Source of the DNA: Acaryochloris marina MBIC11017
GTDB taxonomy: Bacteria; Cyanobacteriota; Cyanobacteriia; Thermosynechococcales; Thermosynechococcaceae
Length of the DNA: 32,000 bases
Direction: 5' to 3'
Assembly: GCF_000018105.1 (NCBI RefSeq)
Contig: NC_009926.1
Coordinates: 240,001-272,000, forward strand
Below are positions 1-14,367 of the stretch, piece by piece (position 1 is the first letter of the stretch; each line of letters opens with the position of its first letter). Below the pieces are notes generated by a model. The model ran no database searches, was not told the origin of the DNA, and saw only the letters and a list, made by a program, of their open reading frames with translations. A program made the translations under genes and the position numbers.

Positions 1-2811
1 CGGCTGGCTTTTATGCTGGCGGATGCGCAAGTGCCGCTGCTGGTGACGACCTCCACCTCAGCGACCCATCTGCCTAACCCTACCGCCCAGGTGATCAAGT
101 TGGATGCCGATTGGCCGACCATTTCTCAGGAACCGGAACACAATCCCAGCAGTGCGGTTACGGTCGAAAACCTAGCCTACTTGATCTATACCTCCGGCTC
201 AACTGGCACACCGAAGGGCGTTTTGGTGCCCCATGCCGGATTGGTCAATCTAACCGACGACAAGATTCGCACCTGCCAGGTGCGCCCCGATAGTCGCGTC
301 CTGCAATTTTTCTCGCTCAGCTTCGATGCATCCGTTCCCGAAATTGTCATGAGTTTGGGTTGTGGTGCTGCCCTCCATCTAGCTCCCCCAGAGGATTTGC
401 TACCAGGGCCGGGACTCCTAAAGCTACTGCGAGAACAGGCCATCACCCACATCACCGCACCACCCTCTGCCCTGACCGCATTACCACCAGCAGACTTACC
501 CGCGCTGCAGATGGTGTTGGTGGGCGGCGAAGCGCCATCGCCGGAACTGATTGCCCAGTGGTCAAAAGGACGACTGTTCATCAACGCCTATGGCCCCACT
601 GAAACCACCGTCAACGCCAGCATGGTGCCTTGTGAGGCTGGAGCAGAACCAACCCTGCGACCAGCGGCCAACAAGCAGCTCTATATCCTTGATCGCCATC
701 TCCAACTCTTGCCCATTGGCGTACCGGGCGAATTGTATATCGGTGGCATCGGCCTAGCACGAGGCTATCTCAATCGGCCTGAAAAAACGGCAGCAGCCTT
801 TGTGGATTTTGGATTGCCGCTTTTCGATGCTGGATTAGATACGGGTCAGTTATTATCTCCAAACTCCAAAATCCCTAGCGCAGCGCAGCAGAGCCATGCC
901 TTTGAGGCTATAAATCCAGAATCAACTCGTTTATACAAAACCGGCGACCTAGCCTGCTACCGCCGTGACGGTCATATCAAGCTGCTGGGGCGGCTAGATC
1001 ATCAGGTGAAGATTCGAGGCTTTCGGATTGAATTGGGCGAAATTGAAGCCCGCCTGGCTCAACATCCGGCGGTTCAGGAGAGTGTGGTGATTGTACGCGA
1101 AGATCAACCGGGCGAACGCCGCTTGGTGGCCTATGTTGCAACCAGCTCAGACCCAGCACCCACCACCAGTGAGCTACACCGTTTTGTCGCTAAAACCCTG
1201 CCCAAATACATGGTGCCTGCGGTCTTCGTGCGACTAGAGGCTCTCCCGCTCAATCCAAATGGCAAAGTCGATCGGCAGGCGCTACCCGCACCGGATACGT
1301 TGCGGCCTGCCCTGGCCGAGACCTTTGTGGCTCCCCGTAATTCGACTGAGACTTGCCTGGTTCAGGTGTTTGCTGACGTGCTTGAGGTCAAGCAAGTGGG
1401 AGTTCACGATGACTTCTTTGAGTTGGGGGGGCACTCTCTGCTAGCCACTAAGCTGATTGCTCGGTTGTTGAAAGATTTTCAAATCGAGTTGGCGATCGCA
1501 GATTTGTTCGAGTCCCCCACGGTTGCCGGTTTGGCTGAACGCATTGAGTCGCTGCGGCAGGCATCTGGTTCTCAATCAGCCTCCCAGGAGGCTACCCATC
1601 AAACTATCGCAGCGTTCCTCAAAGCTGAAGCCGTCCTCGACCCCACCATTCGCCCAGCACCCGGATCGAGTCGGGCGATCGCTCCAGCCTGTGGCATCTT
1701 CTTAACTGGAGCCACCGGATTTCTTGGCGCTTTTCTACTCGCGGAACTGCTGCAACAAACCACTGCCAAAATCTATTGTTTGGTTCGCTCACACTCGCAA
1801 GCATCAGCCCAACACAAGCTGCAAGCTAGCCTGACATCCTATCAGCTCTGGCATGATGCCTGGCAATCTCGCATTATTCCCATCGTTGGCGATTTAGCTC
1901 AACCCCGTTTAGGCCTCACTGAATCGCAGTTTCAGGCTCTGGCTCGTGATGCTGACATGATTTACCACAGTGGCGCATGGGTACACCATGCCTCGCCCTA
2001 CTCCTTGCTCAAAGCCAGCAATGTTTTGGGCACTGAAGAAGTCCTGCGATTGGCCTGTCATACCAAGGTCAAGCCCGTGCATTTTATGTCGGCAACCAGC
2101 GTTTTTGCCCCCGCTGACGTTGCCAACCCCCAGGTGATCCGAGAACAGGAGGATATTACAAATCACGCACCGTTGGGCGGCTACAACCAAAGCAAATGGG
2201 TGGCCGAGCATCTGGTAGTAATGGCGGGCGATCGCGGCCTACCAGTTGCGATTTATCGGTTGGGCCGGATCTCGGGTCACAGTCAAACCGGGGTATTTAA
2301 CCCCAATGACTTTTTGTATCGTCTGATCATCGGCTGTGTTGAGCTGGGCTATGTCCCGAAAGACGCAGAGATGCTGCTCGACATGATTCCAGTGGATTAC
2401 GCTAGTCGTGCCATTGCTTACCTCTCTCAGCAGCCCAGCTCTCAGACGCAACCGTTCCACCTAGTTCATCCCCAGCCGGTTTCGTCCAGCATTCTATTCG
2501 AGGCCCTGAGATCGCAGGGCTACACCGTTCAGCAGATTTCCGAACAGCACTGGCGGAGCAAACTGCTGCACATCGCCGAAACCTCGCCCAATCACCCATT
2601 GTATCCGCTGATTCCCCTACTGACTGCTCCCAGTCAACCGTCTAGTGAACCGTCCCTGGAAGCTGTCCTCCGATTCGACTGTCAAAACACCTTGAATGGA
2701 CTAGCTAAAAGTGAGATCGCATGTCCACCCCTCGATCAATCGCTCTTACACACTTACTTCACCTATCTCAGCCAGAACGGCTGGCTCAAGCAATCTGAAC
2801 CTCAAACCTAA
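1..2811 (+). CDS. Non-ribosomal peptide synthetase, terminal module fragment (adenylation - thiolation - thioester reductase); 5' end outside window
   Basis: Frame 1 is open from nt 1 (RLAF precedes the first ATG). A-domain cores: LAYLIYTSGSTGTPKG, FDASVPE, NAYGPTE, GELYIGGIGLARGY, YKTGDL, KIRGFRIELGEIE, NPNGKVDR. Carrier motif FFELGGHSLLA. Reductase Rossmann motif GATGFLGAFLL plus YNQSKWVAE (Tyr/Lys). Confidence 0.93.
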   Translation, partial: RLAFMLADAQVPLLVTTSTSATHLPNPTAQVIKLDADWPTISQEPEHNPSSAVTVENLAYLIYTSGSTGTPKGVLVPHAGLVNLTDDKIRTCQVRPDSRVLQFFSLSFDASVPEIVMSLGCGAALHLAPPEDLLPGPGLLKLLREQAITHITAPPSALTALPPADLPALQMVLVGGEAPSPELIAQWSKGRLFINAYGPTETTVNASMVPCEAGAEPTLRPAANKQLYILDRHLQLLPIGVPGELYIGGIGLARGYLNRPEKTAAAFVDFGLPLFDAGLDTGQLLSPNSKIPSAAQQSHAFEAINPESTRLYKTGDLACYRRDGHIKLLGRLDHQVKIRGFRIELGEIEARLAQHPAVQESVVIVREDQPGERRLVAYVATSSDPAPTTSELHRFVAKTLPKYMVPAVFVRLEALPLNPNGKVDRQALPAPDTLRPALAETFVAPRNSTETCLVQVFADVLEVKQVGVHDDFFELGGHSLLATKLIARLLKDFQIELAIADLFESPTVAGLAERIESLRQASGSQSASQEATHQTIAAFLKAEAVLDPTIRPAPGSSRAIAPACGIFLTGATGFLGAFLLAELLQQTTAKIYCLVRSHSQASAQHKLQASLTSYQLWHDAWQSRIIPIVGDLAQPRLGLTESQFQALARDADMIYHSGAWVHHASPYSLLKASNVLGTEEVLRLACHTKVKPVHFMSATSVFAPADVANPQVIREQEDITNHAPLGGYNQSKWVAEHLVVMAGDRGLPVAIYRLGRISGHSQTGVFNPNDFLYRLIIGCVELGYVPKDAEMLLDMIPVDYASRAIAYLSQQPSSQTQPFHLVHPQPVSSSILFEALRSQGYTVQQISEQHWRSKLLHIAETSPNHPLYPLIPLLTAPSQPSSEPSLEAVLRFDCQNTLNGLAKSEIACPPLDQSLLHTYFTYLSQNGWLKQSEPQT

Positions 2812-2834
2812 CTTATTCCTTATTCACAACCAAT

Positions 2835-3734
2835 TTGCCAAAAACTATGACCTCTTCTACCTCCCGCTACTCCGACTACGATCCCTGGGCCTGGTTATAC
2901 AATCGCTCTGAGGCTCATCTGGCCCTTCAAGGTCTCATGCCCCTTTTGGACAAATTACTATTTCCCCACCTGCCTGAAAACGGCCAGATTCTAGATGTGT
3001 GCTGCGGCACGGGGCAGGTCTCCAAACAGCTGATCCAGCAGGGCTATCAGGTTACAGGGCTGGATGGTTCGGAGAAGATGCTGCACTACGCGCGTGAGAA
3101 TGCACCCCAGGGTAAATTTTTGCTGGACGATGCCCGCTCCTTTACCCTGCCATCTACCTTTGATGCGGCGATTTCAACTGACTCCTCTCTCAACCACATT
3201 ATGAGTCTAGACGAGCTACAGCAGGTATTTCAAAACGTGTACGCCGCCCTGAAGCAGGGCGGACGTTTCCTATTCGACTTGGGTCTGGAAAATCGATATC
3301 GCAATATCGAGGTGAATGATGGGGAACTGCAAGCTGATTACGCCTGGACGGTGGGAGAAACTTATGATGCAGACAACAAAACGGGCACGTTTACGATCAC
3401 GCTGTTTCAGCCTGCCGATTCCGACGCATCCCCCAGCCTGACAAACTCGGACAAGAGATCGCATTCCATCCCCCAACGGCTCAAGCGCTTTGTTTACAAT
3501 CGAGTCCTGCGCGTCCTGCGTCCCGGCCTTTTACCCCAGCTAATTGATAAGTATTGGCAATCTTTACCCATGACCTTTACGGCTAAGCCCTATTCTCAAG
3601 CTGAGGTACGAGCTGCTCTGGAAGTGGTGGGATTCACCCAGGTCGAAGTCTATGATTTTCGGGCTAGGAGAGCCACTCCTCAACGGAAAGATTACGCCTA
3701 CTTCCTAGCCCAAAAACCCAGTGGTCAAGCTTAA
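2835..3734 (+). CDS. Class I SAM-dependent methyltransferase
   Basis: Motif I ILDVCCGTGQVS, downstream acidic LDGSEKM, and GGRFLFD motif. Starts 24 nt after the NRPS stop on the same strand. Confidence 0.85.
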   Translation: MPKTMTSSTSRYSDYDPWAWLYNRSEAHLALQGLMPLLDKLLFPHLPENGQILDVCCGTGQVSKQLIQQGYQVTGLDGSEKMLHYARENAPQGKFLLDDARSFTLPSTFDAAISTDSSLNHIMSLDELQQVFQNVYAALKQGGRFLFDLGLENRYRNIEVNDGELQADYAWTVGETYDADNKTGTFTITLFQPADSDASPSLTNSDKRSHSIPQRLKRFVYNRVLRVLRPGLLPQLIDKYWQSLPMTFTAKPYSQAEVRAALEVVGFTQVEVYDFRARRATPQRKDYAYFLAQKPSGQA

Positions 3735-3774
3735 ATCATTGATATTAGGTAGGGGCAATAGCCATTCATCCCTA

Positions 3775-5082
3775 CTAGGTGATTTCTTGAAAAGAAGCCC
3801 CGTACTAAATTGGATGAATTAGGATGTCCCACTTGGGTAACTGAGGATGTCTCTCCAATCGTTTCTCAATGCCTTTCATTGCTTGTTTAGTAAGCGAAAT
3901 TCCTGTTTCATAAGTCTTCTGTGTCACAGTTACAACGGGGTGATTCCCCTTCCAAGTCATGGTGCTAGCCCATCCCAACAGGGTATCAACATCGGTTAAT
4001 AAGGTTCCGTTCCAGTGTTGCTCCAAAATCCCCCAACATCGCTCAATGGGGTTGTACTTGCTGTGATAAGGCGGATAGTACAGGAGTTGAATAGCGGTGC
4101 CGATGTGATCGCTAAATGCCACCAGTCGATTGAGGAACTGAGTGCGTACCCCACTATTCTCAGGACCGTTATCCAACTTGATCTGGATGAGCTGCAGGGT
4201 TTGCTGTTCGGTGGGGGCCAGGGTGTTCCACCAATCCTGGAGATTATCGACCATAAAATCGCTCGTTTTGTGAGAATGGCCAAAAATGATGTGTAATGTA
4301 TCGGTATCCTCCTCTAGGATGCCGCAGGGAATATATTTTGGCCCACTACCCATATCGTGATCACAGGCTTTCGTTTGGGTTCGAGTCTTGCCCCGACGAG
4401 AGGACTCCCCTAGTTCAACGGTGGCTTTGCAATCGATGCTCAATCGTTTGACGGTACCGTCATGGTCTTTCAGGTCTTTGTGTTTGAGGTTGGCAAAGAC
4501 GGCATCGGTTTCCGGCAGTTTTTTTGGGGTTTAGCTTTGAGGACACGACGGAGTCGATAGCCTAACCGATTCAAGACGACGGCCATGGTACTCTTTGCCG
4601 GTACAGACTTGGGGGGAAATCCTTGCGCTCTCAAGTGGGTGATAGCGGCAGCCGCTGTTAAGCGGGTATAGGCAGTTGAGCTGGAAAAGGTGGGGTCTTG
4701 TTGGCAATGGGCTTCTGCAAGCTCCCGTAAGGCGGTTGCGACCTCTGGGTGAAGGTCTTCCCAACGTTTCCTGCCACAGAAACCCGACTGAGCACCCACA
4801 CAAATCATGCCTGTTCGCTTCTCACCTAAACCTGTTGCCACCGTATTTCGACCCCAGCCAAAGATAATTTCTGTGAGATTGGGGTTCCCGTCACAGTATT
4901 TGAGGGCGATGTCTGCCTGGAAAGCCCGGCGGCGGGCTCCTGTCATTTTCGAGGAGGCAAATTTCAGATCTTCAAGTTGATTCCAGGTTAATTGGTCACG
5001 CATGCTCAGAGTTAGATTCAATGCATCACTATTACATTCTGTGCTCAGAAGTATGTGAGGTCTTTCCTAGAAATCGCCCTAG
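3775..5082 (-). mobile_element. ISAzo13-like insertion sequence (about 1.3 kb) between the methyltransferase and aminotransferase genes
   Basis: Imperfect terminal inverted repeats: CTAGGTGATTTCTTGAAAAGA at 3775-3795 versus the reverse complement of TCTTTCCTAGAAATCGCCCTAG at 5061-5082. They flank a single transposase reading frame. Confidence 0.7.
3805..5021 (-). pseudogene. ISAzo13-family DDE transposase, split into two frames at a 7-nt homopolymer (frameshifted, or expressed by -1 slippage)
   Basis: ORFs 4470-5021 and 3805-4443 are N- and C-terminal halves of one protein. Recognisable motifs: SIDCKATVELG, CDHDMG, DNGPENSG, YYPPYHSKYNPIERCWGILEQHWNG, LPKWDILIHP. The frames join across the T7 tract at 4519-4525: frame 0 reads KPQKNCRK, the -1 frame reads KPQKKLPETDAVFANLKHKD. 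Confidence 0.8.
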
Positions 5083-5090
5083 ATATCCAG

Positions 5091-5132
5091 AAAGTACGTT
5101 TCGCAAAGAAAAAAGTACGTTTTACGAAGAAA
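5091..5132 (+). repeat. Tandem 2 x 21-bp direct repeat (site A)
   Basis: AAAGTACGTTTCGCAAAGAAA followed by AAAGTACGTTTTACGAAGAAA. The same motif family occurs at 11807-11848. Confidence 0.9.
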
Positions 5133-5171
5133 AGCTAGGCTACATCCTCCTATGATAGTCTCAGATTTACT

Positions 5172-5186
5172 TGAGAATAATTCTCG
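5172..5186. promoter_or_regulatory. Fur-box-like 7-1-7 palindrome upstream of the aminotransferase operon
   Basis: TGAGAATAATTCTCG; the core GAGAAT-A-ATTCTC is a perfect palindrome. Compare the 7-1-7 Fur consensus TGATAATnATTATCA. It lies 21 nt upstream of the ATG at 5207. Confidence 0.45.
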
Positions 5187-5206
5187 ATTGCTATTAGGGT
5201 GATGTC

Positions 5207-6682
5207 ATGACCCAGTCTCTTTTAGACTCCCAATCTAATCCTCAGCAAAGTCCTCAATTGGATCCTCAGCGTGCCTATTTGGACAGGTTCATTGTGCGTT
5301 ACACCCAACGAACTCAAACCTCCAAGGCGATTGCCCAATTCTCTCGTTCCGTCCTGGCCGATCCGAGGCAATCGGAATGGTTTAGTCCAACCACCAAAGA
5401 GCTGTGCTACCTGGTTGTGGGCGAGCGATCGCAGGGATCGCGGGTCTGGGATGTCAACGGGAACGAGTACATTGACCTAATTATGGGGTTTGGAGCCAAC
5501 CTGCTGGGTCACAATCCACCATTGATTAAAGAGGCATTGCAGGCACAACTGGAAAAAGGCATCCAGCTCGGCCCCCAGGCCGAATATGCGGGTGAGGTGG
5601 CGGCCTTGATTAGTGAGCTGACAGGTTTAGAGCGGGTCGCGTTTAGCAATACGGGTACGGAAGCGGTGATGACCGCGGTGCGGCTGGCGCGAGCGGCAAC
5701 GCAGCGGACTAAAATTGCCGTCTTTACCAATTCCTATCACGGTCACGCCGATGGGGTCTTGGTAGAGCCTGGATTTCCCCTGCCCAGCATTCTACAGCGA
5801 TTGCTGGGGGGGCTCGTCTCCCGCTTAAATGCCCGCGCTGTGCCAATGGCTCCAGGCATTCCCAAGGTGATCGCTAAAAATGTTTTAGTTCTAGACTACG
5901 GCAATCCGGAATCGCTCCAAGTGATTAAAGCTCATCGCCATCAGCTAGCCGCCGTCTTGGTGGAGCCTGTTCAGAGTCAGCAGCCCGACTTACAGCCTAA
6001 AGCGTTTCTGCATGACTTGCGGTCAATCACCCAGGATTCCGGCATTGCGCTGATCTTTGACGAAATGGTGACGGGATTTCGCCTCCACTTAGGAGGAGCA
6101 CAGGCATGGTTTGGCGTTGAAGCTGACATCGCTACCTATGGCAAGGTGGTAGGTGGTGGCCTCCCCATCGGCGTGATTGGGGGTAAAGCCGCTTATCTCG
6201 ACAAGATTGACGGCGGTCAGTGGGCCTATGGCGATGACTCCTACCCCTCAGTAGAGAAGACCTTTTTTGCCGGTACCCACTGCAAGCACCCCTTATCAAT
6301 GGCAGCGGCACGGGCTTTACTCCACCATCTCAAGCAGCAAGGGCCGACCCTGCAAGAGCAATTGAATCAGCGCACCGCTTGTTTTGTGGAACAGTTCAAT
6401 GCTTTTTTAGCCGTCAATTCTTTGCCTATACAAATGGCTCATTTTGGCTCTTTCTTTAGTCCCGTTTTTCGTCAAGATGCCAGTCCATGTACAATTTCCG
6501 CGCTGATGCCGGGGTTCGAACTGTTGCGCTACCACCTGCTTGATCGGGGCATTTTGCTGCGCGGTGAAGGTGGCGGCTTTCTATCAACTGCCCATACAGA
6601 TGACGACATCAATGCTATCACTCAGGCGATGAAAGATAGCATCGCTGAGCTACAGTCAGCAGGCTTTTTTCCGACCTCATGA
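5207..6682 (+). CDS. Class-III (glutamate-1-semialdehyde aminomutase-like) PLP-dependent aminotransferase
   Basis: GSRVWDVNGNEYIDLIMGFGANLLGHNPP, AFSNTGTEAVMTAVRLARA, IFDEMVTGFR, and YGKVVGGGLPIGVIGG (PLP lysine region). This resembles AMT domains and stand-alone transaminases of NRPS/PKS clusters. Confidence 0.88.
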   Translation: MTQSLLDSQSNPQQSPQLDPQRAYLDRFIVRYTQRTQTSKAIAQFSRSVLADPRQSEWFSPTTKELCYLVVGERSQGSRVWDVNGNEYIDLIMGFGANLLGHNPPLIKEALQAQLEKGIQLGPQAEYAGEVAALISELTGLERVAFSNTGTEAVMTAVRLARAATQRTKIAVFTNSYHGHADGVLVEPGFPLPSILQRLLGGLVSRLNARAVPMAPGIPKVIAKNVLVLDYGNPESLQVIKAHRHQLAAVLVEPVQSQQPDLQPKAFLHDLRSITQDSGIALIFDEMVTGFRLHLGGAQAWFGVEADIATYGKVVGGGLPIGVIGGKAAYLDKIDGGQWAYGDDSYPSVEKTFFAGTHCKHPLSMAAARALLHHLKQQGPTLQEQLNQRTACFVEQFNAFLAVNSLPIQMAHFGSFFSPVFRQDASPCTISALMPGFELLRYHLLDRGILLRGEGGGFLSTAHTDDDINAITQAMKDSIAELQSAGFFPTS

Positions 6683-7760: not shown

Positions 7761-8024
7761 ATGAAAGATGTGGGTTTGATGAACACGCTAATCGCAATCC
7801 TGACTGATTTGGGAGTTCCTAAAGATTGTCTGCATTCTGAAGCACGATTACATAAGGATCTGCAACTGGATTCGACTGAAATCGTTGAAATTTCTTTGGC
7901 GCTCAAGCGCCGATTAGATGTGCGAGTCAAGCTAGAAGGTCGGCAAGATATGACTTTGGCTCAGGTCTGTGATCGGATCGAAGTGGCTCAGCTTACTAAT
8001 TCAAATTCAGCTCATGGTTCTTGA
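7761..8024 (+). CDS. Stand-alone acyl/aryl carrier protein
   Basis: 87 aa with phosphopantetheine-attachment motif LQLDSTEIVEISLAL. AAGGGGA ribosome-binding site about 10 nt upstream. Confidence 0.85.
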   Translation: MKDVGLMNTLIAILTDLGVPKDCLHSEARLHKDLQLDSTEIVEISLALKRRLDVRVKLEGRQDMTLAQVCDRIEVAQLTNSNSAHGS

Positions 8025-8478
8025 CGTGCAGGGAAAATTGGAGTGCTTAGCACGGAATGTTGATGTTCAGTATGGAGACATCAAAGGTGTGGGTATAGAT
8101 ATTGTGTCAGTTGCCCAAATTGCAAACTTAGTTGAGCAATTTGACTGCCAATCTTTGGCTCTGCTTTTCACTCCAAATGAGTTGGATTGGTGCCAATCGG
8201 CAGGGATTGAAAAAGAAGAGCGAAACCGCGCTTTCGCTCTCTGTTTTGCCACCAAAGAAGCTGTTTCCAAAGCGCTCACAACTGGTTTAGTTGGCATCGA
8301 ATGGACTGACATTGAAGCTTACTTTGAAGCCGATAAAATTCATAACCCGATCACCGTGATGCTATCTGGTGCAGCTAGGGTCCACGCTCGGAATCATCAT
8401 ATCCAGTGCTGGCAGGTGAACTGGTGGGAATGGGATGGGCACGTCATGGTTCATGTCTTGAGTTTCCTAAGGGAATAA
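8014..8478 (+). CDS. AcpS-type 4'-phosphopantetheinyl transferase (canonical catalytic motifs)
   Basis: GVGIDIVSV (Mg-ligand Asp) and FATKEAVSKAL (Mg-ligand Glu). The ORF track opens at 7969; the ATG at 8014 or GTG at 8026 is the more likely start because the earlier one overlaps the carrier gene by 56 nt. Confidence 0.8.
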   Translation: MVLDVQGKLECLARNVDVQYGDIKGVGIDIVSVAQIANLVEQFDCQSLALLFTPNELDWCQSAGIEKEERNRAFALCFATKEAVSKALTTGLVGIEWTDIEAYFEADKIHNPITVMLSGAARVHARNHHIQCWQVNWWEWDGHVMVHVLSFLRE

Positions 8479-8488
8479 GGAAAATCAT

Positions 8489-10030
8489 ATGGGATGCATT
8501 TCTGCACAATTACCGGATATTTTTAATGTGGCGGCCTATTTCCTCGATGGCGAGGTCGCCCAGGAAAATAGTGAGCGAATTGCCCTGTTTTATCAAGAAG
8601 AAACCTACACCTACGGCCAGCTCCAGCAGTGGGTACAGCGGGCAGCGAGATCGCTGCTTATGGCGGGTATTGAACGAGAAAACCGGATTGCTCTGCTCCT
8701 GCCGGATTCCCCTGAACTCGTGTTTGCCTTTTGGGGAGCCATCTGGATGGGGGCGGTTCCTGTGCCAATCAATACTGCCTGTAGTGTCGATGAAGTTCGA
8801 TATATCTTACAGGACTCGCGAGCCAAACTGTTGGTGACAACCGAAGACTGGCAGGCTAAGTTATCCCCCATTACATCGCCCTTTTTGCAGCATACGTGGT
8901 TAAACACTGGAGAAACTCCCTTGTTATCCCAATTAGAGCAGTTGCCGGCAACTGCGATCACAGCCGCTACGTCTCGCGATGAACCTGCCTTCTGGCTTTA
9001 TACCTCCGGCAGCACCGGCAAGCCCAAAGGCGTGATTCATCTGCATCAAAGTATGGTGGTCTGTGTAGAACACTATGCCAAAACGACCTTAGGACTCCGC
9101 CGCGACGACATTACCTATTCAGTGGCGAACATTCCCTTTGCTTATGGATTAGGCAACACACTTTATATGCCGCTGGCTGTGGGGGCAGCAACGGTGCTAT
9201 CCGACGCCATCAATGCCTTCGACATCGTGGCCGACATTCAGCGCTACCAACCCACCGTATTCTTCGGCATTCCCAGCGTATACGCCAACCTCCTCGCCAT
9301 CCATGAGATCGAACCGCTTAACCCGGCTGGTTTGCGTCTCTGTGTCTCGGCAGCAGAGCAACTGCCTGAAAGTCTCTGGTATCAATGGCGGGCAACGCAT
9401 AACCAAGAGATTTACGAAGGGATTGGCACCACAGAGTTTTTGCATATCTTCCTTTCCAATCAACCCGGAGCTTGCAAACCAGGGACCTCGGGACGGCCCG
9501 TTGCTGGCTATGATGTGCGGGTGGTGGACGATGAGGGACACTCTTGTGCAGTGGCGGAAATCGGCAACCTAGTGGTCGGAGGAGAGAGCCTGATGGGGGG
9601 CTACTGGAATCATCTGCAAGCAACCCGACAGGCGATTCATGGGAGCACAATGCACACAGGAGATAAATATCAGTGCGATGCCGAGGGCTATTTCAAATTT
9701 ATGGGACGTAAGGACGACCTGTTTAAGGTGAATGGCCAGTGGGTTTCGCCGATGGAAATTGAGGATGTGTTGCACCAGCATCCCCAGGTACTAGAGGTAG
9801 CTGTGTTGCCTGAATCCCAGGCGGAGGAACGGCTTACCCAGGTGATCGCCTACATTACTCTCAAAGCCGGAAACCCTCCATCCCCAGAATTAGAAACCCA
9901 AATCTGTCGGTTTGCTAAACAGCATCTGCCCCATTTTAAGGCGCCTAAAACTGTTCAGTTTGTGGATGCCTTACCGCGCACGCCAACCGGAAAAATTCAT
10001 CGCAAATCGCTGGGTGTTGTGCATTCGTAA
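8489..10030 (+). CDS. Aryl-acid adenylating enzyme of the benzoate/4-hydroxybenzoate-CoA ligase type
   Basis: NVAAYFLD, FWLYTSGSTGKPKGVIHLHQS, GIGTTEFLHIFLSN, GTSGRPVAGY, GDKY...GRKDDLFKVNGQWVSPMEIE, PTGKIHR. Confidence 0.88.
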   Translation: MGCISAQLPDIFNVAAYFLDGEVAQENSERIALFYQEETYTYGQLQQWVQRAARSLLMAGIERENRIALLLPDSPELVFAFWGAIWMGAVPVPINTACSVDEVRYILQDSRAKLLVTTEDWQAKLSPITSPFLQHTWLNTGETPLLSQLEQLPATAITAATSRDEPAFWLYTSGSTGKPKGVIHLHQSMVVCVEHYAKTTLGLRRDDITYSVANIPFAYGLGNTLYMPLAVGAATVLSDAINAFDIVADIQRYQPTVFFGIPSVYANLLAIHEIEPLNPAGLRLCVSAAEQLPESLWYQWRATHNQEIYEGIGTTEFLHIFLSNQPGACKPGTSGRPVAGYDVRVVDDEGHSCAVAEIGNLVVGGESLMGGYWNHLQATRQAIHGSTMHTGDKYQCDAEGYFKFMGRKDDLFKVNGQWVSPMEIEDVLHQHPQVLEVAVLPESQAEERLTQVIAYITLKAGNPPSPELETQICRFAKQHLPHFKAPKTVQFVDALPRTPTGKIHRKSLGVVHS

Positions 10031-10071: not shown

Positions 10072-11394
10072 TTGATGGTTACAGAATTGCACCCAACAAT
10101 CACCTATCAGGAAACATTTGTTCCAGGAAAAAGAAGCGAGATCGCAACTCTAAAATCCTGTTTGGATGCAGGACTCTTTTCCAATTACATGCTATACAAG
10201 AAAGATGGCGACGTTCGCATTGCAGGGAATGAACTGGCGACTATATCAGTCAGTCCAGATGTCATTCAGCTCCAGAGTCAGGGGCAGTCGCATACTGAAC
10301 CCGCCACCGATCCTTTTCAGCAAGTTGGCGCATTACTAAAGACATTAGCAATTAAAAATTGGACAGCCTATGGCTATGTTGCTTTCGATATGGCCAGATT
10401 CTATTCCTCCTATTCCAAATCGATACAGCAGCCGCTGCTTCACTTTCTAGTACCAGAAACCGAACTGCAATTTACCCATGCAGGGGTTCATGTTAAGCGG
10501 GTAGGCTTACTCGATCCACTGCTAAAGATTTTGGAAAGCGATCGCTCCCTCGCTGATTACCAGCCAATTCCGCTGGAGCAAGATGCTGCTGATTGCGAGC
10601 CCTATTCCCACAAAATCAAGACTCTAATCGCGGCCATCCAACAGAATGAATTGCACAAAGCCATTATCTCTCGTTCAAAAAAGCTGACTGGTGATTTAGA
10701 TTTAATCGGCACCTATGCTGTGGGAGTAAAGAACAATAATTCGGCTCGTTCCTATTGCTTTAAGCTGGCAGATGTAGGTGCTGTAGGCTTTAGCCCTGAG
10801 ATTTTGATGGAGGTCAATCAGGCGGGAATGCTAGTGACCAATCCCCTGGCTGCTACTCGCCCTCGTGGAAAAGATCATGAGGCAGATCAGCAGTTAGAGA
10901 ACGAGCTATTTACTGATGCAAAAGAGGTCAAAGAACATGCGCTTTCTATTTGGCTTGCTCAAAGTGAATTAGACTCTGTCTGCATACCTCAGACGGTGAA
11001 AGTGTTTAACTTTATGGAAGTCAAAAAGTATCGGTGTGTACAGCACTTGTCCTCGCGAGTAGGCGGACAACTGCAAACAGGTAAAACGCTTTGGGATGCC
11101 TTGAAAGTTATATTTCCGGGGGTCACTGTGACGGGCATTAATAAATCTCAGGCACTCGATTGGATCGACCAGCTAGAGAGTGAGCCACGCGGTATTTATG
11201 CAGGTGGTATTGGTTGGGTGGACAGCAAGGGAATGGCGGATTTAGCGATAGCAATTCGCTCGGTCTATCAGTATTGCAACACCATCTGCCTTAACGCTGG
11301 AGCCGGAATCGTGGCTGAATCCAATACGCAAAACGAGTATGTGGAATCAGTCAACAAAATGAACACAATGCTGACCAGTTTAGTCTTGAAATGA
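10072..11394 (+). CDS. Salicylate synthase-like chorismate-utilising enzyme (Irp9/MbtI type)
   Basis: KAIISR, GFSPEILM, NPLAATRPRG, KEVKEHALSI, VQHLSS, IFPGVTVTGINK, PRGIYAGGIGW, AIAIRSVYQ, GAGIVAES. At 440 aa it matches Irp9/MbtI in length. AAGGAGA RBS at 10063-10069; TTG at 10072 or ATG at 10075. Confidence 0.8.
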   Translation: MMVTELHPTITYQETFVPGKRSEIATLKSCLDAGLFSNYMLYKKDGDVRIAGNELATISVSPDVIQLQSQGQSHTEPATDPFQQVGALLKTLAIKNWTAYGYVAFDMARFYSSYSKSIQQPLLHFLVPETELQFTHAGVHVKRVGLLDPLLKILESDRSLADYQPIPLEQDAADCEPYSHKIKTLIAAIQQNELHKAIISRSKKLTGDLDLIGTYAVGVKNNNSARSYCFKLADVGAVGFSPEILMEVNQAGMLVTNPLAATRPRGKDHEADQQLENELFTDAKEVKEHALSIWLAQSELDSVCIPQTVKVFNFMEVKKYRCVQHLSSRVGGQLQTGKTLWDALKVIFPGVTVTGINKSQALDWIDQLESEPRGIYAGGIGWVDSKGMADLAIAIRSVYQYCNTICLNAGAGIVAESNTQNEYVESVNKMNTMLTSLVLK

Positions 11395-11403
11395 CTGACT
11401 GAA

Positions 11404-11844
11404 ATGAACCAGCCAACTCATCAGCATGAAGCTCCCTATCGACAGGGCTTACATATTGTCAAAACTGCTTGGATTGAAGCTTGCTTAGCTCAATCAGGTG
11501 AGCAGTTTGAACAGCAGTACTTTTCCATCGCAGAACGGCATCGGACCCAGATCCGAGCGCCCTATGCTCAATATCTGGCGGGCCGTTTTGCTGCCAAAGC
11601 CACAATCCTACAAATTCTCCACATTCAACTTGAGACCTTTGATCGATGGCACGACATTGAGATTAAAAATTGGCCTCATGGTGAACCCTTTGTGACGCTT
11701 GATGGCTACTGTCAAAAATTGGCCGCCGATCTTCACCTTAACAACTGGCTACTGAGCATCAGCCATATATCAACCTATGCAGCAGCCAGTGTGATCGCAC
11801 GGCTAAAAAGTCCGTTTCACAAAGAAAAAAGTCCGTTTCGCTAA
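11404..11844 (+). CDS. AcpS-like protein with substituted catalytic residues (probable pseudo-PPTase or neofunctionalised paralogue)
   Basis: Clear AcpS scaffold: YLAGRFAAK, DIEIKN..HGEPFV, LLSISHISTYAAASVIA. However, GxD is GLH, KEA is KAT and GKP is GEP. The last 12 codons are encoded by a 2 x 21-bp DNA repeat. Confidence 0.7.
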   Translation: MNQPTHQHEAPYRQGLHIVKTAWIEACLAQSGEQFEQQYFSIAERHRTQIRAPYAQYLAGRFAAKATILQILHIQLETFDRWHDIEIKNWPHGEPFVTLDGYCQKLAADLHLNNWLLSISHISTYAAASVIARLKSPFHKEKSPFR

Positions 11845-11848
11845 GAAA
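11807..11848 (+). repeat. Tandem 2 x 21-bp direct repeat (site B)
   Basis: AAAGTCCGTTTCACAAAGAAA followed by AAAGTCCGTTTCGCTAAGAAA. It spans the stop codon of the AcpS-like ORF, 24 nt before the next ORF. Confidence 0.9.
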
Positions 11849-11871
11849 TTGGCAGAGTGTAATGATTACAC

Positions 11872-12999
11872 TTGATAGATCGCTTTGATAAATCTTTCGC
11901 CTATAGTCTCCCTGTGAATTTCATCCGCCCTCAACTCTTTAATGACTGTCAAATTTGTTCAGTCATTTCTAAATCCAATGGTGAAGATCCTATTGGGAGT
12001 GCTCATCCCTGTGATATCTGGATAATGGTCGAGATTTCATTGCCTTGGACAGAAGAACGGTTGATGACGGAACCGATTCTAAGACAACTTTACCAGTTGT
12101 TTCATGACTACTACGATGCCGATGAACAACCATTTCAGATGATGCCAATGGTTATTGCGCCTGACCATAACTATTCTGTTCCCGAGTACACGCGTGTCTT
12201 GCTTTTCCAGCGCCCAGCTCCATTCTTTGCCCAGTTCAACAAACAGGAATTCCTCCTTCCTTTTGAGCAGCTTCCCCATTTGATGCAAACCGCTCTCACC
12301 CAGCCCAGCAATCTCAAAACTTTTGACTGCTATAAACAGCCGACTTCGTTGACCCGCGATCTCTTTGTTTGTACCCACGGAAATGTCGATGTGGCCTGCG
12401 CCCGCTTTGGTACTCCAGTCTATTTTGAACTTCGAAAATATTGTGGGAAAACCGAAGGCGATGGAAAATTTTCTCTAAAATCCAAAATCCAAAATCCAAA
12501 ATCTTTCTACTCCCCACCTTCCTCTAACTCCTCCACCCTCCGTGTCTGGCGCTGTTCTCATTTTGGTGGCCATCAGTTTGCGCCAACCCTGGTGGACTTG
12601 CCTACTGGCCAAGTCTGGGGACATCTGGAGATGGAGATGCTCGACACGCTAATACAGCGGCATCGTCCCGTTACGGAATTGCGGCGATTTTATCGGGGCT
12701 GGTCAGGTCTGCCTCAGTATGCCCAAATTTTGGAACGTGAAGTCTGGATGCAGCAGGGATGGGACTGGCTGGCTTACAACAAATTGGGGCACATCATGGC
12801 TCAAGATACTGATCATGAAAAATGGGACGCGGACTGGGCCGACGTGCGCCTAGAGTTTGCCTCGCCGGATGGTCTCGTTAAAGGAGCGTATGAGGCAAGG
12901 GTGGAAGTGACTGGTTCAGTATTGACAGTCTGGAATTCCGGTGAGAAGCCGGAAGCGGTGAAGCAGTACAGCATCAACCAGTTAATCTGTGTTGCGTAG
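11872..12999 (+). CDS. Sucrase/ferredoxin-like (thioredoxin-like [2Fe-2S]-type) family protein
   Basis: LFVCTHGNVDVACARFG and RCSHFGGHQFAPT motifs are typical of the Suc_Fer-like family. TTG start as given by the ORF track; start uncertain. Confidence 0.7.
   Translation: MIDRFDKSFAYSLPVNFIRPQLFNDCQICSVISKSNGEDPIGSAHPCDIWIMVEISLPWTEERLMTEPILRQLYQLFHDYYDADEQPFQMMPMVIAPDHNYSVPEYTRVLLFQRPAPFFAQFNKQEFLLPFEQLPHLMQTALTQPSNLKTFDCYKQPTSLTRDLFVCTHGNVDVACARFGTPVYFELRKYCGKTEGDGKFSLKSKIQNPKSFYSPPSSNSSTLRVWRCSHFGGHQFAPTLVDLPTGQVWGHLEMEMLDTLIQRHRPVTELRRFYRGWSGLPQYAQILEREVWMQQGWDWLAYNKLGHIMAQDTDHEKWDADWADVRLEFASPDGLVKGAYEARVEVTGSVLTVWNSGEKPEAVKQYSINQLICVA
12477..12503 (+). repeat. Heptanucleotide tandem repeat (AAAATCC) x 3.9 inside the Suc_Fer-like CDS
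   Basis: aaaatcc aaaatcc aaaatcc aaaatc read directly from the sequence; it encodes KSKIQNPKS. Confidence 0.95.
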
Positions 13000-13017
13000 C
13001 AATGGGTTAATTCTAGC

Positions 13018-14367
13018 GTGCGTACTTTCATCTTTCTCTGGCTAGGACAACTGTCTTCTTCGGTTGGCAGCAGCATGACCTATTTTGCGCTCAACCTTTG
13101 GATATGGCAGCAAACTCAGTCGGCAACATCGATTGCTCTCATCTTAGTCTTTTATCAATTGCCTCAAATTGTGATCGCTCCCCTTTCTGGTCTGCTGGCA
13201 GATCGTGTTTCTCGTAAACGCCTGCTGATTTTTAGCGATACGGCATCCGCTTACTGCACCCTTGCCGTGGGCATACTGGCCGCTTTCCAAATTCTGAAGC
13301 TTTGGCATGTCTACCTGATTGCGGCAGCGATTGGCTGCTTTGGGAACATTCAAGCACTCACCTATTCAACTCTGATTCCCCTGATTGTCCACAAACAGCA
13401 TCATACGCGGGCTAGTAGCATGGGAGCCATGGTGGGTTATGGAGCCGATATTTTTTCCCCTGCCCTCGCTGGACTCCTGTATCCACTCATTGGACTCCTA
13501 GGAATTACCTTGATTGACATGAGTACATTTGCGATCGCGATTTTTACCCTAGTGTTAGTGCCAATTCCAGCAATCGAGAAAGTTAACAAACATAACGACG
13601 AACAACGATTGGCTTTCCCAAGTGTTGAGGGAGCAAAACGGAAAATTTGGCGTGAAGTGACGTTTGGGTTTCGCTACATTGCCTCACAACCAAGCTTATT
13701 AACAATGGTTATCACCATTTCCATCTTCGCTTTTCTCCATCAGCTTGGTGAAACGCTCTATCAACCGATGATTTTAGCCCGCACGGGTGGCAACACTCAG
13801 GTCTTAGGCTTGATCGTCGCTGCCTCCGGACTCGGAGGAGTGTTCGGGGCAATTATCTTGAGTATTTGGGGTGGGTTCCGGCGGCGAATATCTGGCATAT
13901 TGGTCGGATTTATTGGAACAGGCGTGAGCAATCTCATTCTGGGACTTGGACATTTCCCTGGACTCTGGGCGGTGGCTCGGTTTGGGTCATCACTCCATAA
14001 TCCACTCGTTATGAGTTCTTACATGGCTGTCTGGTATGCCAAAATTGCCCCAGAACACCAAGGACGTATCTTCGCTGCTGACTATCTGGTGGGAATTGTG
14101 ATTGAATCTACTGCGGGTTTGAGTGCGGGGTTATTAGCTGATCGCTTACTCGAACCTGCCCTGCAGTCTGGTGAATGGATGGCTTTACATTTAGGGGGAT
14201 GGATTGGAACAGGCCCCGGAAGTGGTATGGCATTGTTAATCACGATGAGCGGGATGGGTACGGTACTGATTGGCATTATAGGATTCAAGATTCCACAGTT
14301 GCGAGATGTCGAAACACTCTTAGCCGACCATGACTCTATTGGGGATAAACACACTGCTACTAATTAA
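13018..14367 (+). CDS. MFS transporter, EntS-like (MFS_3) putative metabolite/siderophore exporter
   Basis: N-terminus FIFLWLGQLSSSVGSSMTYFALNLWIW, LADRVSRKRLLIF loop motif, and roughly 12 hydrophobic segments. Last gene of the + strand operon. Confidence 0.85.
   Translation: MRTFIFLWLGQLSSSVGSSMTYFALNLWIWQQTQSATSIALILVFYQLPQIVIAPLSGLLADRVSRKRLLIFSDTASAYCTLAVGILAAFQILKLWHVYLIAAAIGCFGNIQALTYSTLIPLIVHKQHHTRASSMGAMVGYGADIFSPALAGLLYPLIGLLGITLIDMSTFAIAIFTLVLVPIPAIEKVNKHNDEQRLAFPSVEGAKRKIWREVTFGFRYIASQPSLLTMVITISIFAFLHQLGETLYQPMILARTGGNTQVLGLIVAASGLGGVFGAIILSIWGGFRRRISGILVGFIGTGVSNLILGLGHFPGLWAVARFGSSLHNPLVMSSYMAVWYAKIAPEHQGRIFAADYLVGIVIESTAGLSAGLLADRLLEPALQSGEWMALHLGGWIGTGPGSGMALLITMSGMGTVLIGIIGFKIPQLRDVETLLADHDSIGDKHTATN

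Follow-up and report, generated by a model that had tools for sequence, protein, structure and literature searches.

The Anabaena cylindrica gene cluster assigned to anachelin contains SalS, CoAL, Red, MT, AmT, TyrH, efflux, and thioredoxin-like genes (Calteau 2014, PMC4247773). [quoted passage not shown] The leptochelin cluster carries a salicylate cassette of a similar kind to the one described below, benzoate-CoA ligase included (PMC11240249). As to Acaryochloris marina MBIC11017, a siderophore cluster flanked by transposases has been located on a plasmid, where it is the source of most siderophore-gene transcripts, and iron uptake is faster in this strain (PMC6007379). That cluster (AM1_RS29740–29790) may be the one analyzed here.

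The window is a stretch of 32,000 nucleotides of A. marina MBIC11017 (NC_009926.1, positions 240,001–272,000). Its positions 1–14367 very probably represent the distal half of a plasmid-borne NRPS siderophore gene cluster in which two chelator modules are combined. Both modules have been described earlier, and they are a salicylate starter cassette and an anachelin/fabrubactin-type Dmaq catechol cassette. The host replicon is a plasmid, probably the 374-kb one. All biosynthetic genes and the exporter gene lie on the + strand, and an insertion sequence (IS) lies on the − strand. The features are as follows.

1–2811, +, 3′ part of an NRPS gene (partial A, T, and thioester reductase; Pfam/NCBIfam AMP-binding, PP-binding, and thioester reductase)
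2847–3734, +, class I SAM methyltransferase, presumed to N,N-dimethylate the amine in the Dmaq route (Pfam Methyltransf_25/11)
~3778–5082, −, ISAzo13-family IS of ~1.3 kb between the methyltransferase and aminotransferase genes (transposase ORFs and nucleotide identity)
5092–5133, +, paired 21-bp direct repeats AAGTACGTTTCGCAAAGAAAA / AAGTACGTTTTACGAAGAAAA, 74 nt 5′ of the aminotransferase start
5172–5186, no strand, "Fur-box-like" palindrome TGAGAATAATTCTCG, 21 nt 5′ of the start codon of the aminotransferase gene
5207–6682, +, class-III PLP aminotransferase (GSA-aminomutase-like), presumed to convert a peptidyl aldehyde to an amine (Pfam Aminotran_3, 1.4e-50)
6679–7143, +, FbnL-like protein of 154 aa, putative equivalent of the N-terminal half of SfmD-type heme peroxidase (homologues and predicted structure)
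7161–7742, +, FbnM-like protein of 193 aa, putative equivalent of the C-terminal half of SfmD (HxxxC heme-attachment motif, AHRAVC)
7761–8024, +, stand-alone acyl/aryl carrier protein of 87 aa (weak NCBIfam ACP matches)
8014–8478, +, AcpS-type 4′-phosphopantetheinyl transferase (PPT1) with intact catalytic residues (Pfam ACPS, 52 bits)
8489–10030, +, benzoate-CoA-ligase-family aryl acid ligase, presumed salicylate activator (TIGR02262 at 474 bits, above the cut-off of 375)
10072–11394, +, MbtI/Irp9-type chorismate-utilizing enzyme of 440 aa, presumed bifunctional salicylate synthase (TIGR03494 and PDB ranking)
11404–11844, +, second AcpS-like protein (PPT2; NCBIfam AcpS models at 51–61 bits, below most cut-offs)
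11808–11849, +, second pair of 21-bp direct repeats, which overlaps the PPT2 end and lies 22 nt before the Suc_Fer-like ORF
11872–12999, +, Suc_Fer-like (thioredoxin-like ferredoxin) protein (Pfam PF06999 at 9e-28)
13018–14367, +, MFS (MFS_3/DHA3) efflux protein, presumed siderophore exporter (Pfam MFS_1/MFS_3)

A preliminary description had listed genes of this region, all of which were found at the positions it gave, but it overlooked four features: the IS, the split peroxidase ORFs (the presumed tyrosine-hydroxylating pair characteristic of the Dmaq route), the degenerate AcpS paralogue, and the Suc_Fer-like gene. It placed the assembly-line start to the left of the window, and the NRPS ORF indeed runs past the left edge. 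The full NRPS gene was obtained from the Logan contig L044, which matches window positions 1–3817 without a mismatch and reaches 2265 bp further left. The complete terminal gene encodes 1573 aa, consisting of a TubC_N docking domain, C, A, T, and R, and the thioester reductase domain scores 378.7 bits with TIGR01746 (cut-off 213). The specificity code of the terminal A domain is DAPTLGAVNK, which is identical in six cyanobacterial orthologues, including that of the A. cylindrica anachelin cluster; in the module of Agrobacterium tumefaciens, the eight of ten code positions readable from motifs all match, positions 278 and 517 being not covered.

The tail of the A. cylindrica cluster is colinear with the window over a five-gene block (NRPS(R)–MT–AmT–FbnL–FbnM) at 49–63% identity, its order being NRPS–MT–AmT–157 aa–195 aa–...–MFS–Suc_Fer. 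The anachelin parallel that the preliminary description drew thus reflects real homology. The fabrubactin-type cluster of A. tumefaciens, which adjoins an Atu3671-family monooxygenase gene, is likewise colinear (NRPS–MT–AmT–MbtH–two "siderophore biosynthesis proteins") at 26–46% identity. Because of this colinearity and the shared A-domain code, the reductase/transaminase/methyltransferase logic corresponds to the published Dmaq route. The methyltransferase (candidate starts 2835 and 2847, with the 295-aa version confirmed by exact look-up) shares 61% identity with its A. cylindrica counterpart and 33% with the protein that occupies the equivalent position in Agrobacterium; its top NCBIfam match, a daptide methyltransferase, is under the cut-off of that model. 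The aminotransferase shows 63 and 46% identity to the respective orthologues, and its best NCBIfam matches, all under cut-off, are GSA-aminomutase (hemL-type) models and GntE (guanitoxin transaminase).

The next two ORFs appear from homology and structure prediction to encode a split SfmD-like (FbnL/FbnM-type) heme peroxidase. The FbnL-like protein has 121 representative homologues, several of which are fused proteins of 349–396 aa that align in their N-half. Its AF2 model (pLDDT 92.6) gave SfmD as all of the top three Foldseek matches in the PDB (TMq 0.64, prob 1.00, E 0.055), and it shares 49% identity with the 157-aa protein of A. cylindrica and 26% with an Agrobacterium "siderophore biosynthesis protein." The FbnM-like protein aligns with residues 181–362 of 6VDP (phmmer E 3.5e-13) and has a precomputed Pfam assignment of PF27188 (SfmD_perox). 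Many of its 231 homologues are labeled "siderophore biosynthesis protein," and it is 63 and 43% identical to the A. cylindrica and Agrobacterium proteins, respectively.

The putative salicylate cassette comprises the carrier protein, PPT1, the ligase, the MbtI/Irp9-like enzyme, and the degenerate PPT2; the families and positions that the preliminary description gave for the first three, adjoining the 440-aa enzyme, were confirmed. The LDSTE serine motif of the carrier protein is conserved in 37/37 orthologues. PPT1 scores above the cut-off of TIGR00556, and its Asp/Glu/Lys residues are kept in 34/34 orthologues. In PPT2, the Mg-binding Asp/Glu are replaced by His/Ala, and the catalytic positions vary over 36 orthologues. 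Among structures, the ligase matched 2V7B (benzoate-CoA ligase) and 4WV3 (anthranilate-CoA ligase) best, at 349 bits each, and the 60 best matches included no EntE/DhbE-type ligase. Its class therefore differs from the EntE/YbtE/MbtA type of the classical salicyl siderophores. The preliminary assignment of the 440-aa protein to the Irp9/MbtI rather than the TrpE pattern, with four quoted motifs that all occur in the translation, is borne out by the HMM and PDB rankings, in which TrpE/PabB score lower. TIGR03494 gives 314 bits, just under its cut-off of 325, and the best TrpE model 254; in the PDB, MbtI/Irp9 rank first (207/191/181 bits), with TrpE at ≤160. The general-base Lys (HKAIISR) and general-acid Glu (GFSPEI) both align. 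The preliminary description took salicylate synthases to be uncommon in cyanobacteria, but an orthologue is present in 42/42 fetched loci, which come from distinct genomes and are nearly all cyanobacterial. The complete cassette is found in ~35 of these 42 loci and is thus not rare.

The Suc_Fer-like protein is 51% identical to the orthologue that the A. cylindrica anachelin cluster carries beside its MFS gene, and its gene was not found in the loci of the relatives L001 and L002. The MFS protein is 50% identical to that of the A. cylindrica cluster. It scores 160 bits with TIGR00900, below cut-off, and 49.8 bits with EntS against a cut-off of 324; the exporter gene predicted earlier is present, but its likeness to EntS is loose.

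The IS transposase is divided over ORFs 4470–5021 and 3805–4443, each with Pfam DDE_Tnp_ISAZ013. The element is 98.7% identical to a plasmid of A. marina MBIC10699 across 3778–5079 and is not present at the corresponding site in L001/L002. It is intergenic and disrupts no ORF, but it could exert a polar effect on the genes downstream. The 21-bp repeat has four matches in the window (0.01 expected) and is kept at the equivalent site in L001, L002, and L053; in A. cylindrica, it sits between an AraC gene and a TonB-receptor gene. The tandem repeats are a candidate binding site for an activator (AraC-type?) with an internal promoter, and the pair directly 3′ of the IS probably provides the genes from the aminotransferase to the MFS protein with an activator-dependent promoter. 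The palindrome TGAGAATAATTCTCG described earlier as Fur-box-like does exist, with three mismatches to the 7-1-7 Fur consensus TGATAATNATTATCA. Allowing three mismatches, this consensus has six matches in the window versus 1.5 expected, and 3/100 shuffles reach six; the 19-mer E. coli Fur box has no match above chance in the window, and the palindrome is only partly conserved in L001/L002 (TGCGAATCTTTCTCG). Since this evidence is weak, the sequence does not show iron regulation, and the conserved repeat is the better regulatory candidate. The ParA/ParB genes come after the cluster, and the adjacent 17 kb contains a Tn3 transposase, a group II intron, and IS21 and IS1-like fragments.

A biosynthetic route can be proposed from these genes. 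The salicylate synthase would convert chorismate to salicylate, and the ligase would adenylate it and load the holo-carrier protein or form a CoA ester. The loaded salicylate would then prime the upstream assembly line. Because the start of that line lies beyond the window, the case for linking salicylate to this NRPS is that their genes are contiguous, both in the window and in the relative L053. By analogy with the fabrubactin/anachelin literature, the two-protein SfmD-like peroxidase would hydroxylate L-Tyr to L-DOPA, and the terminal module (dock–C–A–T–R, DAPTLGAVNK) would incorporate it. The R domain would free the peptide with a C-terminal aldehyde, which the aminotransferase would convert to a primary amine and the methyltransferase would dimethylate. 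Catechol oxidation and aza-annulation would then yield the 1,1-dimethyl-3-amino-tetrahydro-dihydroxyquinolinium (Dmaq) chelator, and the product would be exported by the MFS protein.

Several other readings were weighed. That the product is anachelin itself (salicyl-oxazoline, polyketide Atha unit, Thr-Ser-Ser, and Dmaq), as in A. cylindrica, is improbable. The window has both of the anachelin cluster's chelator cassettes, the terminal A-domain code is equal, and the MFS and Suc_Fer-like genes are common to both, but the A. cylindrica proteins are just 49–63% identical, the salicylate cassette of the window lies downstream of the Dmaq cassette, and the PLP-decarboxylase-like gene of A. cylindrica is missing. 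Moreover, the fully syntenic Drouetiella hepatica locus (L053) has no PKS in the 10 kb upstream and has a free-standing C domain and an additional aminotransferase. Its A-domain codes (DIWEMTADDK, which we take to be Dab-like) are unfit for Thr-Ser-Ser; at this place, the A. cylindrica cluster carries DVWHISLIDK, a code for Ser. We also assign a low probability to a decaying, horizontally acquired remnant whose product has been lost. The IS separates the methyltransferase and aminotransferase genes, the neighboring 17 kb is rich in transposon fragments, and PPT2 lacks catalytic residues. The twelve ORFs for biosynthesis and export are nevertheless all unbroken and full length compared with their orthologues, the intergenic IS is followed on its 3′ side by the conserved promoter-like repeat, and assemblies of several independent sequencing runs recovered the identical gene arrangement. 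The degenerate PPT2 is conserved across cassettes and hence is not a local lesion, and the plasmid siderophore cluster of MBIC11017, possibly this one, is highly transcribed with faster iron uptake (PMC6007379).

It is very unlikely that the 440-aa enzyme makes only isochorismate or another product and that the ligase loads benzoate, hydroxybenzoate, anthranilate, or a similar aryl acid. The sub-threshold TIGR03494 score and the substrates of the closest ligase structures would fit such a reading; against it, salicylate synthases lead TrpE/PabB/EntC/MenF by about 50 bits or more in the HMM and PDB searches, and the water-activating Lys is present in the alignment, at a position where anthranilate synthases have Gln and PabB has Ala. 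Genes for a glutamine amidotransferase, a PchB-like lyase, or EntA/EntB are absent from the cluster, and a 65% identical orthologue occurs in A. cylindrica, a producer of salicylate-capped anachelin. A saframycin/renieramycin-like tetrahydroisoquinoline alkaloid pathway, a type characterized by SfmD-type peroxidases and R-domain NRPSs, is scarcely credible. The 193-aa protein is homologous to SfmD and RenD and the NRPS ends in an R domain, but the identity to RenD is 29% as against 43–63% for the fabrubactin/anachelin-type clusters, in which the peroxidase is split into two genes in the same way. The aminotransferase, N-methyltransferase-type enzyme, salicylate cassette, and MFS_3 exporter correspond gene by gene to siderophore clusters, and orthologous clusters contain TonB-dependent receptors and periplasmic binding proteins.

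The colinear blocks, the A-domain code, and the MbtI/Irp9 ranking agree with the reading, already put forward in the preliminary description, of a salicylate-primed NRPS siderophore whose last residue is R-domain-released, transaminated, and N-methylated. Judged from its genes, the cluster most likely makes a mixed-ligand (salicylate/Dmaq) peptide that is related, yet not identical, to anachelin. The suggestion of a possibly new pathway does not hold as to type, because the Dmaq logic has already been published; the A. marina pathway is a fresh example within an established siderophore family.

Genes on the + strand run in a co-directional row over positions 1–14367 of the window. The ORF survey together with domain scans returned every gene listed in the preliminary description, and in addition the two small ORFs, the second AcpS-like ORF, and the Suc_Fer-like gene.

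Features of the predicted siderophore cluster (from domain scans unless another source is given)
1–2811, + strand: NRPS tail with partial A domain, T domain, and thioester reductase; frame still open at the left edge (base 1)
2847–3734, + strand: SAM methyltransferase (MT)
5207–6682, + strand: class-III aminotransferase (AmT)
6679–7143, + strand: 154-aa ORF (ORF survey)
7161–7742, + strand: 193-aa ORF (ORF survey; SfmD_perox, Pfam PF27188, precomputed)
7761–8024, + strand: carrier protein, 87 aa
8014–8478, + strand: AcpS-type PPTase (PPT1)
8489–10030, + strand: benzoate-CoA-ligase-family enzyme (TIGR02262, 474 bits against a cut-off of 375)
10072–11394, + strand: chorismate-binding enzyme, 440 aa
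11404–11844, + strand: second AcpS-like ORF (PPT2)
11872–12999, + strand: Suc_Fer-like protein
13018–14367, + strand: MFS_3/DHA3 transporter

The left end of this row was extended with the Logan contig L044, which matches positions 1–3817 with 0 mismatches and adds 2265 bp on the left. The terminal NRPS gene is thus a single 1573-aa module comprising a TubC_N docking domain, C, A, T, and R. The gene 5' of it ends in A-T. The upstream reach in A. marina is set by the assembled contigs, which end 2.3 kb beyond the left edge; when the last 118 aa of the upstream NRPS served as query, nothing beyond T-domain fragments came back. The terminal module ends in a thioester reductase (R) domain (TIGR01746, 378.7 bits against a cut-off of 213) with the GATGFLG and YxxxK motifs. 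The ten specificity residues taken from the A4/A5 motifs of its A domain read DAPTLGAVNK in A. marina, and the orthologues of A. cylindrica and Drouetiella share this code with three others; in the Agrobacterium terminal A domain, the code positions readable from the printed motifs agree (8/8). The assignment of the code residues presumably follows the GrsA numbering, on which the identity from orthologue to orthologue does not depend. The terminal A domain belongs to the same specificity class as those of the anachelin and fabrubactin clusters, with DOPA or Tyr as the predicted substrate. Between motifs A6 and A7 of this domain (about 790–930), a low-complexity insertion (…DFGLPLFDAGLDTGQLLSPNSKIPSAAQQSHAFEAINPES…) widens the gap between GELYIGG and YKTGD to 69 aa.

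The two small ORFs behind the aminotransferase gene correspond to the halves of a split enzyme. The 193-aa ORF matches residues 181–362 of SfmD (PDB ID: 6VDP) with an E-value of 3.5e-13 and retains the HxxxC motif. SfmD is the haem-dependent 3-methyl-L-tyrosine peroxygenase of saframycin biosynthesis. The 154-aa ORF had no match in the PDB by sequence, and SfmD was not found with a 53-homologue profile either. Its 121 representative homologues include fused proteins of 349–396 aa whose N-terminal half corresponds to the 154-aa ORF, and in one of these the C-terminal half matches SfmD. For the confident AF2 model of the 154-aa protein (pLDDT 92.6), the top three PDB matches by fold in Foldseek are all SfmD (TMq 0.64, prob 1.00); the E-value of these matches is just 0.055, and all remaining matches are far worse. 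The fused homologues, the SfmD-like C-terminal half in one of them, and the fold match together identify the pair as a two-protein SfmD-like haem peroxidase of the FbnL/FbnM type. SfmD itself is a single chain of 365 aa, whereas its A. marina counterpart consists of two ORFs (154 and 193 aa); the C-terminal half is alike by sequence and the N-terminal half by fold. Both ORFs are orthologous to an adjoining pair in A. cylindrica and in Agrobacterium. A saframycin-type THIQ pathway was considered and rejected because the peroxidase is split, the gene-for-gene synteny is with siderophore clusters, and RenD is just 29% identical.

The order NRPS–MT–AmT–FbnL–FbnM is common to the window and the loci of A. 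cylindrica (L050), Drouetiella hepatica (L053), and Agrobacterium tumefaciens (L054); in the window, an IS is inserted between MT and AmT. FbnL/FbnM have been described as a haem peroxidase of two proteins that forms L-DOPA and thereby starts the Dmaq route (PMC12971057, citing Vinnik 2021). According to the same article, the route to the 1,1-dimethyl-3-amino-tetrahydro-dihydroxyquinolinium chelator (Dmaq) is established for fabrubactins, and Dmaq was first observed in anachelins. It also states that Dmaq siderophore clusters are already recognised across α-proteobacteria and cyanobacteria and that antiSMASH finds them via FbnL/FbnM (PMC12971057). The block that had been described as reductase/transaminase/methyltransferase release logic corresponds, by gene families, order, and orthology, to a predicted Dmaq cassette. 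A transaminase followed by N,N-dimethylation is likewise found in guanitoxin (GntE/GntF) and daptide biosynthesis. GntE and the daptide methyltransferase were among the best NCBIfam matches, all with scores far under the family cut-offs, and we regard this likeness as an analogy of logic only.

One of the closest known counterparts lies in A. cylindrica, whose cluster Calteau et al. (2014) assigned to anachelin, listing SalS, CoAL, Red, MT, AmT, TyrH, efflux, and thioredoxin-like genes (PMC4247773). Locus L050 was found via the A. cylindrica homologue of the 193-aa protein, which is 63% identical and named "siderophore biosynthesis protein." Its order is NRPS (dock-C-A-T-R), MT, AmT, 157 aa, 195 aa, PLP enzyme, MFS, Suc_Fer-like, binding protein, TonB receptor, and AraC, and it is the tail of the cluster assigned by Calteau et al. 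Seven window proteins are 49–63% identical to their L050 counterparts. Common to the two clusters are the salicylate synthase, the CoA/PCP ligase, and the carrier protein; the terminal NRPS with its docking and R domains, the methyltransferase, the class-III aminotransferase, and the two-ORF "tyrosine hydroxylase"; and the MFS efflux and thioredoxin-like (Suc_Fer) genes. The terminal A-domain codes are identical. The A. marina cluster differs in its gene order, lacks the PLP-decarboxylase-like gene, has neither a TonB-receptor gene nor genes for a binding protein or an AraC regulator inside the window, and is plasmid-borne and IS-interrupted, whereas the Anabaena loci have no detectable AcpS beside the cassette. 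The A. tumefaciens locus, with the order NRPS, MT, AmT, MbtH, and two "siderophore biosynthesis protein" genes adjoining an Atu3671-family monooxygenase, is a fabrubactin-type cluster. Its likeness to A. marina lies in the NRPS(R)–MT–AmT–FbnL–FbnM order (fbn of Agrobacterium fabrum C58 and relatives), with 26–46% identity to the A. tumefaciens plasmid copy. In contrast, the A. marina window is without the MbtH gene, the Atu3671/FbnE-type monooxygenase, and the PKS, and the salicylate cassette of A. marina has no visible equivalent in the 40-kb Agrobacterium stretch.

The 440-aa enzyme had been read as a salicylate synthase (SalS), and the four motifs quoted for it were all found in the translation. 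The salicylate-synthase model TIGR03494 gives 314.0 bits, narrowly below its cut-off of 325.15, and the next-best model, TrpE-arch anthranilate synthase (254 bits), lies 60 bits under the TIGR03494 score. Its best structural relatives are Irp9 and MbtI: MbtI-like and Irp9-like entries come first in the PDB ranking (8QIJ, 5JY9, 2FN0, and MbtI entries; 207, 191, and 181 bits), no TrpE chain exceeds 160 bits, and PabB, EntC, and MenF are lower still. The segment HKAIISR aligns to YHKVILSR/YVKVIVSR and GFSPE to GYSPE/GFSPE, so the catalytic Lys and Glu are kept. In the superfamily of chorismate enzymes, this Lys is the water-activating base and this Glu the general acid. ORF and domain scans of the window found no amidotransferase, PchB-like, or EntA/EntB genes. 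On the strength of the ranking, the conserved Lys and Glu, and the lack of these genes, the protein does not group with TrpE/PabB, and its reading as a salicylate synthase is upheld. An anthranilate or ADC synthase was rejected on the lack of an amidotransferase gene in the window and the presence of the Lys. The absence of a PchB-like ORF from the window is consistent with a predicted bifunctional salicylate synthase, which would turn chorismate into salicylate with no isochorismate-pyruvate lyase beside it.

The top model of the neighboring ligase is TIGR02262 (benzoate-CoA ligase), above its cut-off, and its nearest PDB entries are 2V7B and 4WV3, benzoate-CoA ligase and the anthranilate-CoA ligase AuaEII, respectively. 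DHB-AMP ligase models are absent from its best 25 NCBIfam models. The ligase thus lies outside the family of EntE/DhbE/YbtE/MbtA-type aryl acid-AMP ligases. The partner ligases of yersiniabactin and mycobactin (YbtE and MbtA) belong to the EntE/DhbE family, whereas the partner in A. marina groups with the benzoate-CoA ligases. The leptochelin (lec) cluster is known to carry a comparable cassette that includes a benzoate-CoA ligase (PMC11240249), and the lusichelin (lus) cluster has a salicylate synthase and an AMP ligase (PMC12210259). In both of these cyanobacterial systems, the synthase is accompanied by a ligase that is proposed to attach salicylate to the carrier protein, and AraC-family regulators accompany the clusters (PMC11240249, PMC12210259). 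By description, their lines finish with thiazoline/thioesterase chemistry and no Dmaq.

SalS orthologues at 48–75% identity fetched 42 loci from distinct genomes, nearly all cyanobacterial and one of them Anabaena cylindrica, and the five-gene block ACP–AcpS–ligase–SalS–AcpS-like is kept in about 35 of these 42. Contrary to the initial impression, cyanobacteria thus do not rarely have a salicylate synthase gene. PPT1 keeps Asp/Glu/Lys in 34/34 orthologues. PPT2 is without the Mg-binding Asp/Glu, having His/Ala/Gln instead, and these positions vary among about 36 orthologous loci; PPT2 may act as a partner subunit with no catalysis of its own. The general view is that cyanobacteria depend on Sfp-type PPTases. 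At the Anabaena loci L012 and L016, ACP–ligase–SalS is present, but tblastn (E<1e-5) detected no AcpS gene on either flank; nearly every other cyanobacterial cassette has them.

Does the cluster make anachelin itself? The shared gene families and the identical terminal A-domain code invite this reading, but the modules upstream in the nearest syntenic relative argue against it. Two loci, of a Coleofasciculaceae MAG (L001) and of D. hepatica (L002/L053), are fully syntenic with the window, with 57–75% identity over most shared genes and 43–53% for the AcpS paralogues; both are without the IS and the Suc_Fer gene. In L053, the terminal module is preceded by a 1974-aa NRPS, an additional class-III aminotransferase, a C domain that stands alone, and an NRPS of 2623 aa; the C domain, the aminotransferase, and an A domain with the code DIWEMTADDK fall within 1355–10004. 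The 10 kb upstream of the module contain no PKS. This nearest syntenic relative does not show the anachelin-type Cy loading module, the two PKS modules, or the Thr/Ser/Ser modules. Its A-domain codes are DIWEMTADDK, which we take to be Dab-like, and DVSHS-LIWK, as opposed to the Ser code DVWHISLIDK before the A. cylindrica terminal module. In its tail, the upstream NRPS of A. marina shares 61% identity with its Drouetiella counterpart and 57.5% with that of Anabaena, values too close to favor either. The L053 modules point to a non-anachelin peptide backbone in this subgroup, and we consider production of anachelin itself highly improbable. The predicted product is a mixed salicylate/Dmaq chelator.

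The gene families, their order, and their orthology to the anachelin and fabrubactin-type clusters frame the following pathway, whose steps are drawn from the literature. Salicylate formed from chorismate would be activated by the ligase, placed on the holo-carrier protein, and used to prime the upstream line. The split peroxidase would turn Tyr into DOPA, which the last NRPS module would take in. After release as an aldehyde through the R domain, the aminotransferase would form the amine and the methyltransferase would dimethylate it. Oxidative aza-annulation would then give Dmaq, and the MFS protein would export the siderophore.

With regard to regulation, the Fur-box-like palindrome reported earlier is present (TGAGAATAATTCTCG, 5172–5186), but the case for a Fur box is weak. 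The palindrome has 3 mismatches to the 7-1-7 Fur consensus and is poorly or partly conserved in L001/L002. The window holds 6 matches of the 7-1-7 type against 1.5 expected, a number reached by 3/100 shuffles, and a scan of the window with the E. coli 19-mer Fur box gave nothing above chance. A better candidate for a regulator binding site is a tandem pair of 21-bp direct repeats (consensus AAGTMCRTTTYRCNAAGAAAW ×2) at 5092–5133, immediately downstream of the IS and separated by 74 nt from the aminotransferase gene. A second pair lies at 11808–11849, 22 nt before the annotated Suc_Fer start; this position is a poor fit to a simple promoter there. In total, 4 matches of the repeat occur in the window against 0.01 expected. 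The pair recurs at the orthologous site of the syntenic relatives (L001 4895–4936, L002 4896–4937, and L053 15718–15759), and in A. cylindrica L050 it lies at 18442–18483 (− strand) between the genes for the AraC-family regulator and the TonB receptor. By analogy with YbtA and PchR, an AraC-type activator site would be a reasonable reading of the repeat. A consensus promoter/terminator scan was not above shuffles. The window also carries a plasmid-borne Fur-family gene at 30437–30886 (Pfam FUR, 111 bits), and 20 nt upstream of it is a Fur-box-like 15-mer with 3 mismatches (TGATAATGACGACCA, 30403–30417) that may serve autoregulation. Duplicated plasmid Fur genes in MBIC11017 have been mentioned (PMC3156569).

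The IS in the MT–AmT spacer, which is absent from the preliminary description, has imperfect ends of about 20 bp (CTAGGTGATTTCT... / ...AGAAATCGCCCTAG) and shares 98.7% identity with a plasmid copy in A. marina MBIC10699. Its junction was seen again in independent read sets (L046). A ParA/ParB partition pair (15155–16938) lies directly 3' of the cluster, and the remainder of the window is a patchwork of mobile elements.

Mobile elements in the window
About 3778–5082, − strand: ISAzo13-family IS in the MT–AmT spacer, transposase in two ORFs (frameshift or stop)
17883–23285, − strand: split Tn3-family transposase (N-terminal 715 aa, 21138–23285; C-terminal 266 aa, 17883–18683)
18702–18778: Rfam Intron_gpII (48 bits) of the group II intron breaking the Tn3 transposase, with its RT/maturase/HNH ORF at 18796–20526
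23438–27135: tyrosine-recombinase gene, apparently IS21-interrupted (N-terminal SAM-like part, 23438–24007; catalytic part, 26578–27135)
24645–26381 and 24086–24928, both − strand: IS21 genes, istA-like and istB, respectively
27397–28499: IS1/rve-like fragments 3' of the recombinase remnant

The G+C content at 15155–16938 is 0.38–0.42 compared with about 0.50 within the cluster, which is consistent with a plasmid backbone beside horizontally acquired cargo. Megablast of the cluster against the PLSDB plasmids matched the IS and no other part of the cluster. The largest MBIC11017 plasmid is presumably pREB1. The size of the largest plasmid is given as "374 kbp" (PMC6007379).

A plasmid-encoded, transposase-flanked siderophore cluster that is absent from CCMEE 5410 was reported for MBIC11017 by Gallagher and Miller (PMC6007379) and in a comparison of 37 strains (PMC8949462). 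It yields most of the siderophore-gene transcripts, and iron uptake is faster in MBIC11017 than in CCMEE 5410; the cluster was described solely as homologous to that of Anabaena PCC 7120 (PMC6007379, PMC8949462). This description fits the window cluster. Since the family of Dmaq clusters is already recognised, the window cluster is an ordinary member of it, and the knowledge of how such siderophores are made is unchanged. A tentative joint reading, to which we give rather low confidence, is that the cyanobacterial salicylate cassette would have its own way of priming, in which the benzoate-CoA-ligase-type enzyme would load the free-standing carrier protein after activation of the latter by the dedicated AcpS-type PPTase with its degenerate paralogue (e.g., as a hetero-oligomer); that a siderophore-sensing AraC-type activator, not primarily Fur, would switch on the whole salicylate/Dmaq regulon via the 21-bp paired operator; and that a structurally new salicylate–Dmaq peptide would underlie the low-iron adaptation of MBIC11017. 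One invariant A-domain code for the Dmaq terminal module, from Agrobacterium to cyanobacteria, would be a handy marker for genome mining. For the widespread cyanobacterial salicylate cassette, the degenerate second AcpS paralogue and the conserved 21-bp paired repeat are two small testable features. For A. marina, a chlorophyll-d cyanobacterium, the predicted pathway offers a concrete biosynthetic reading of the plasmid siderophore cluster that has been linked to its adaptation to low iron.
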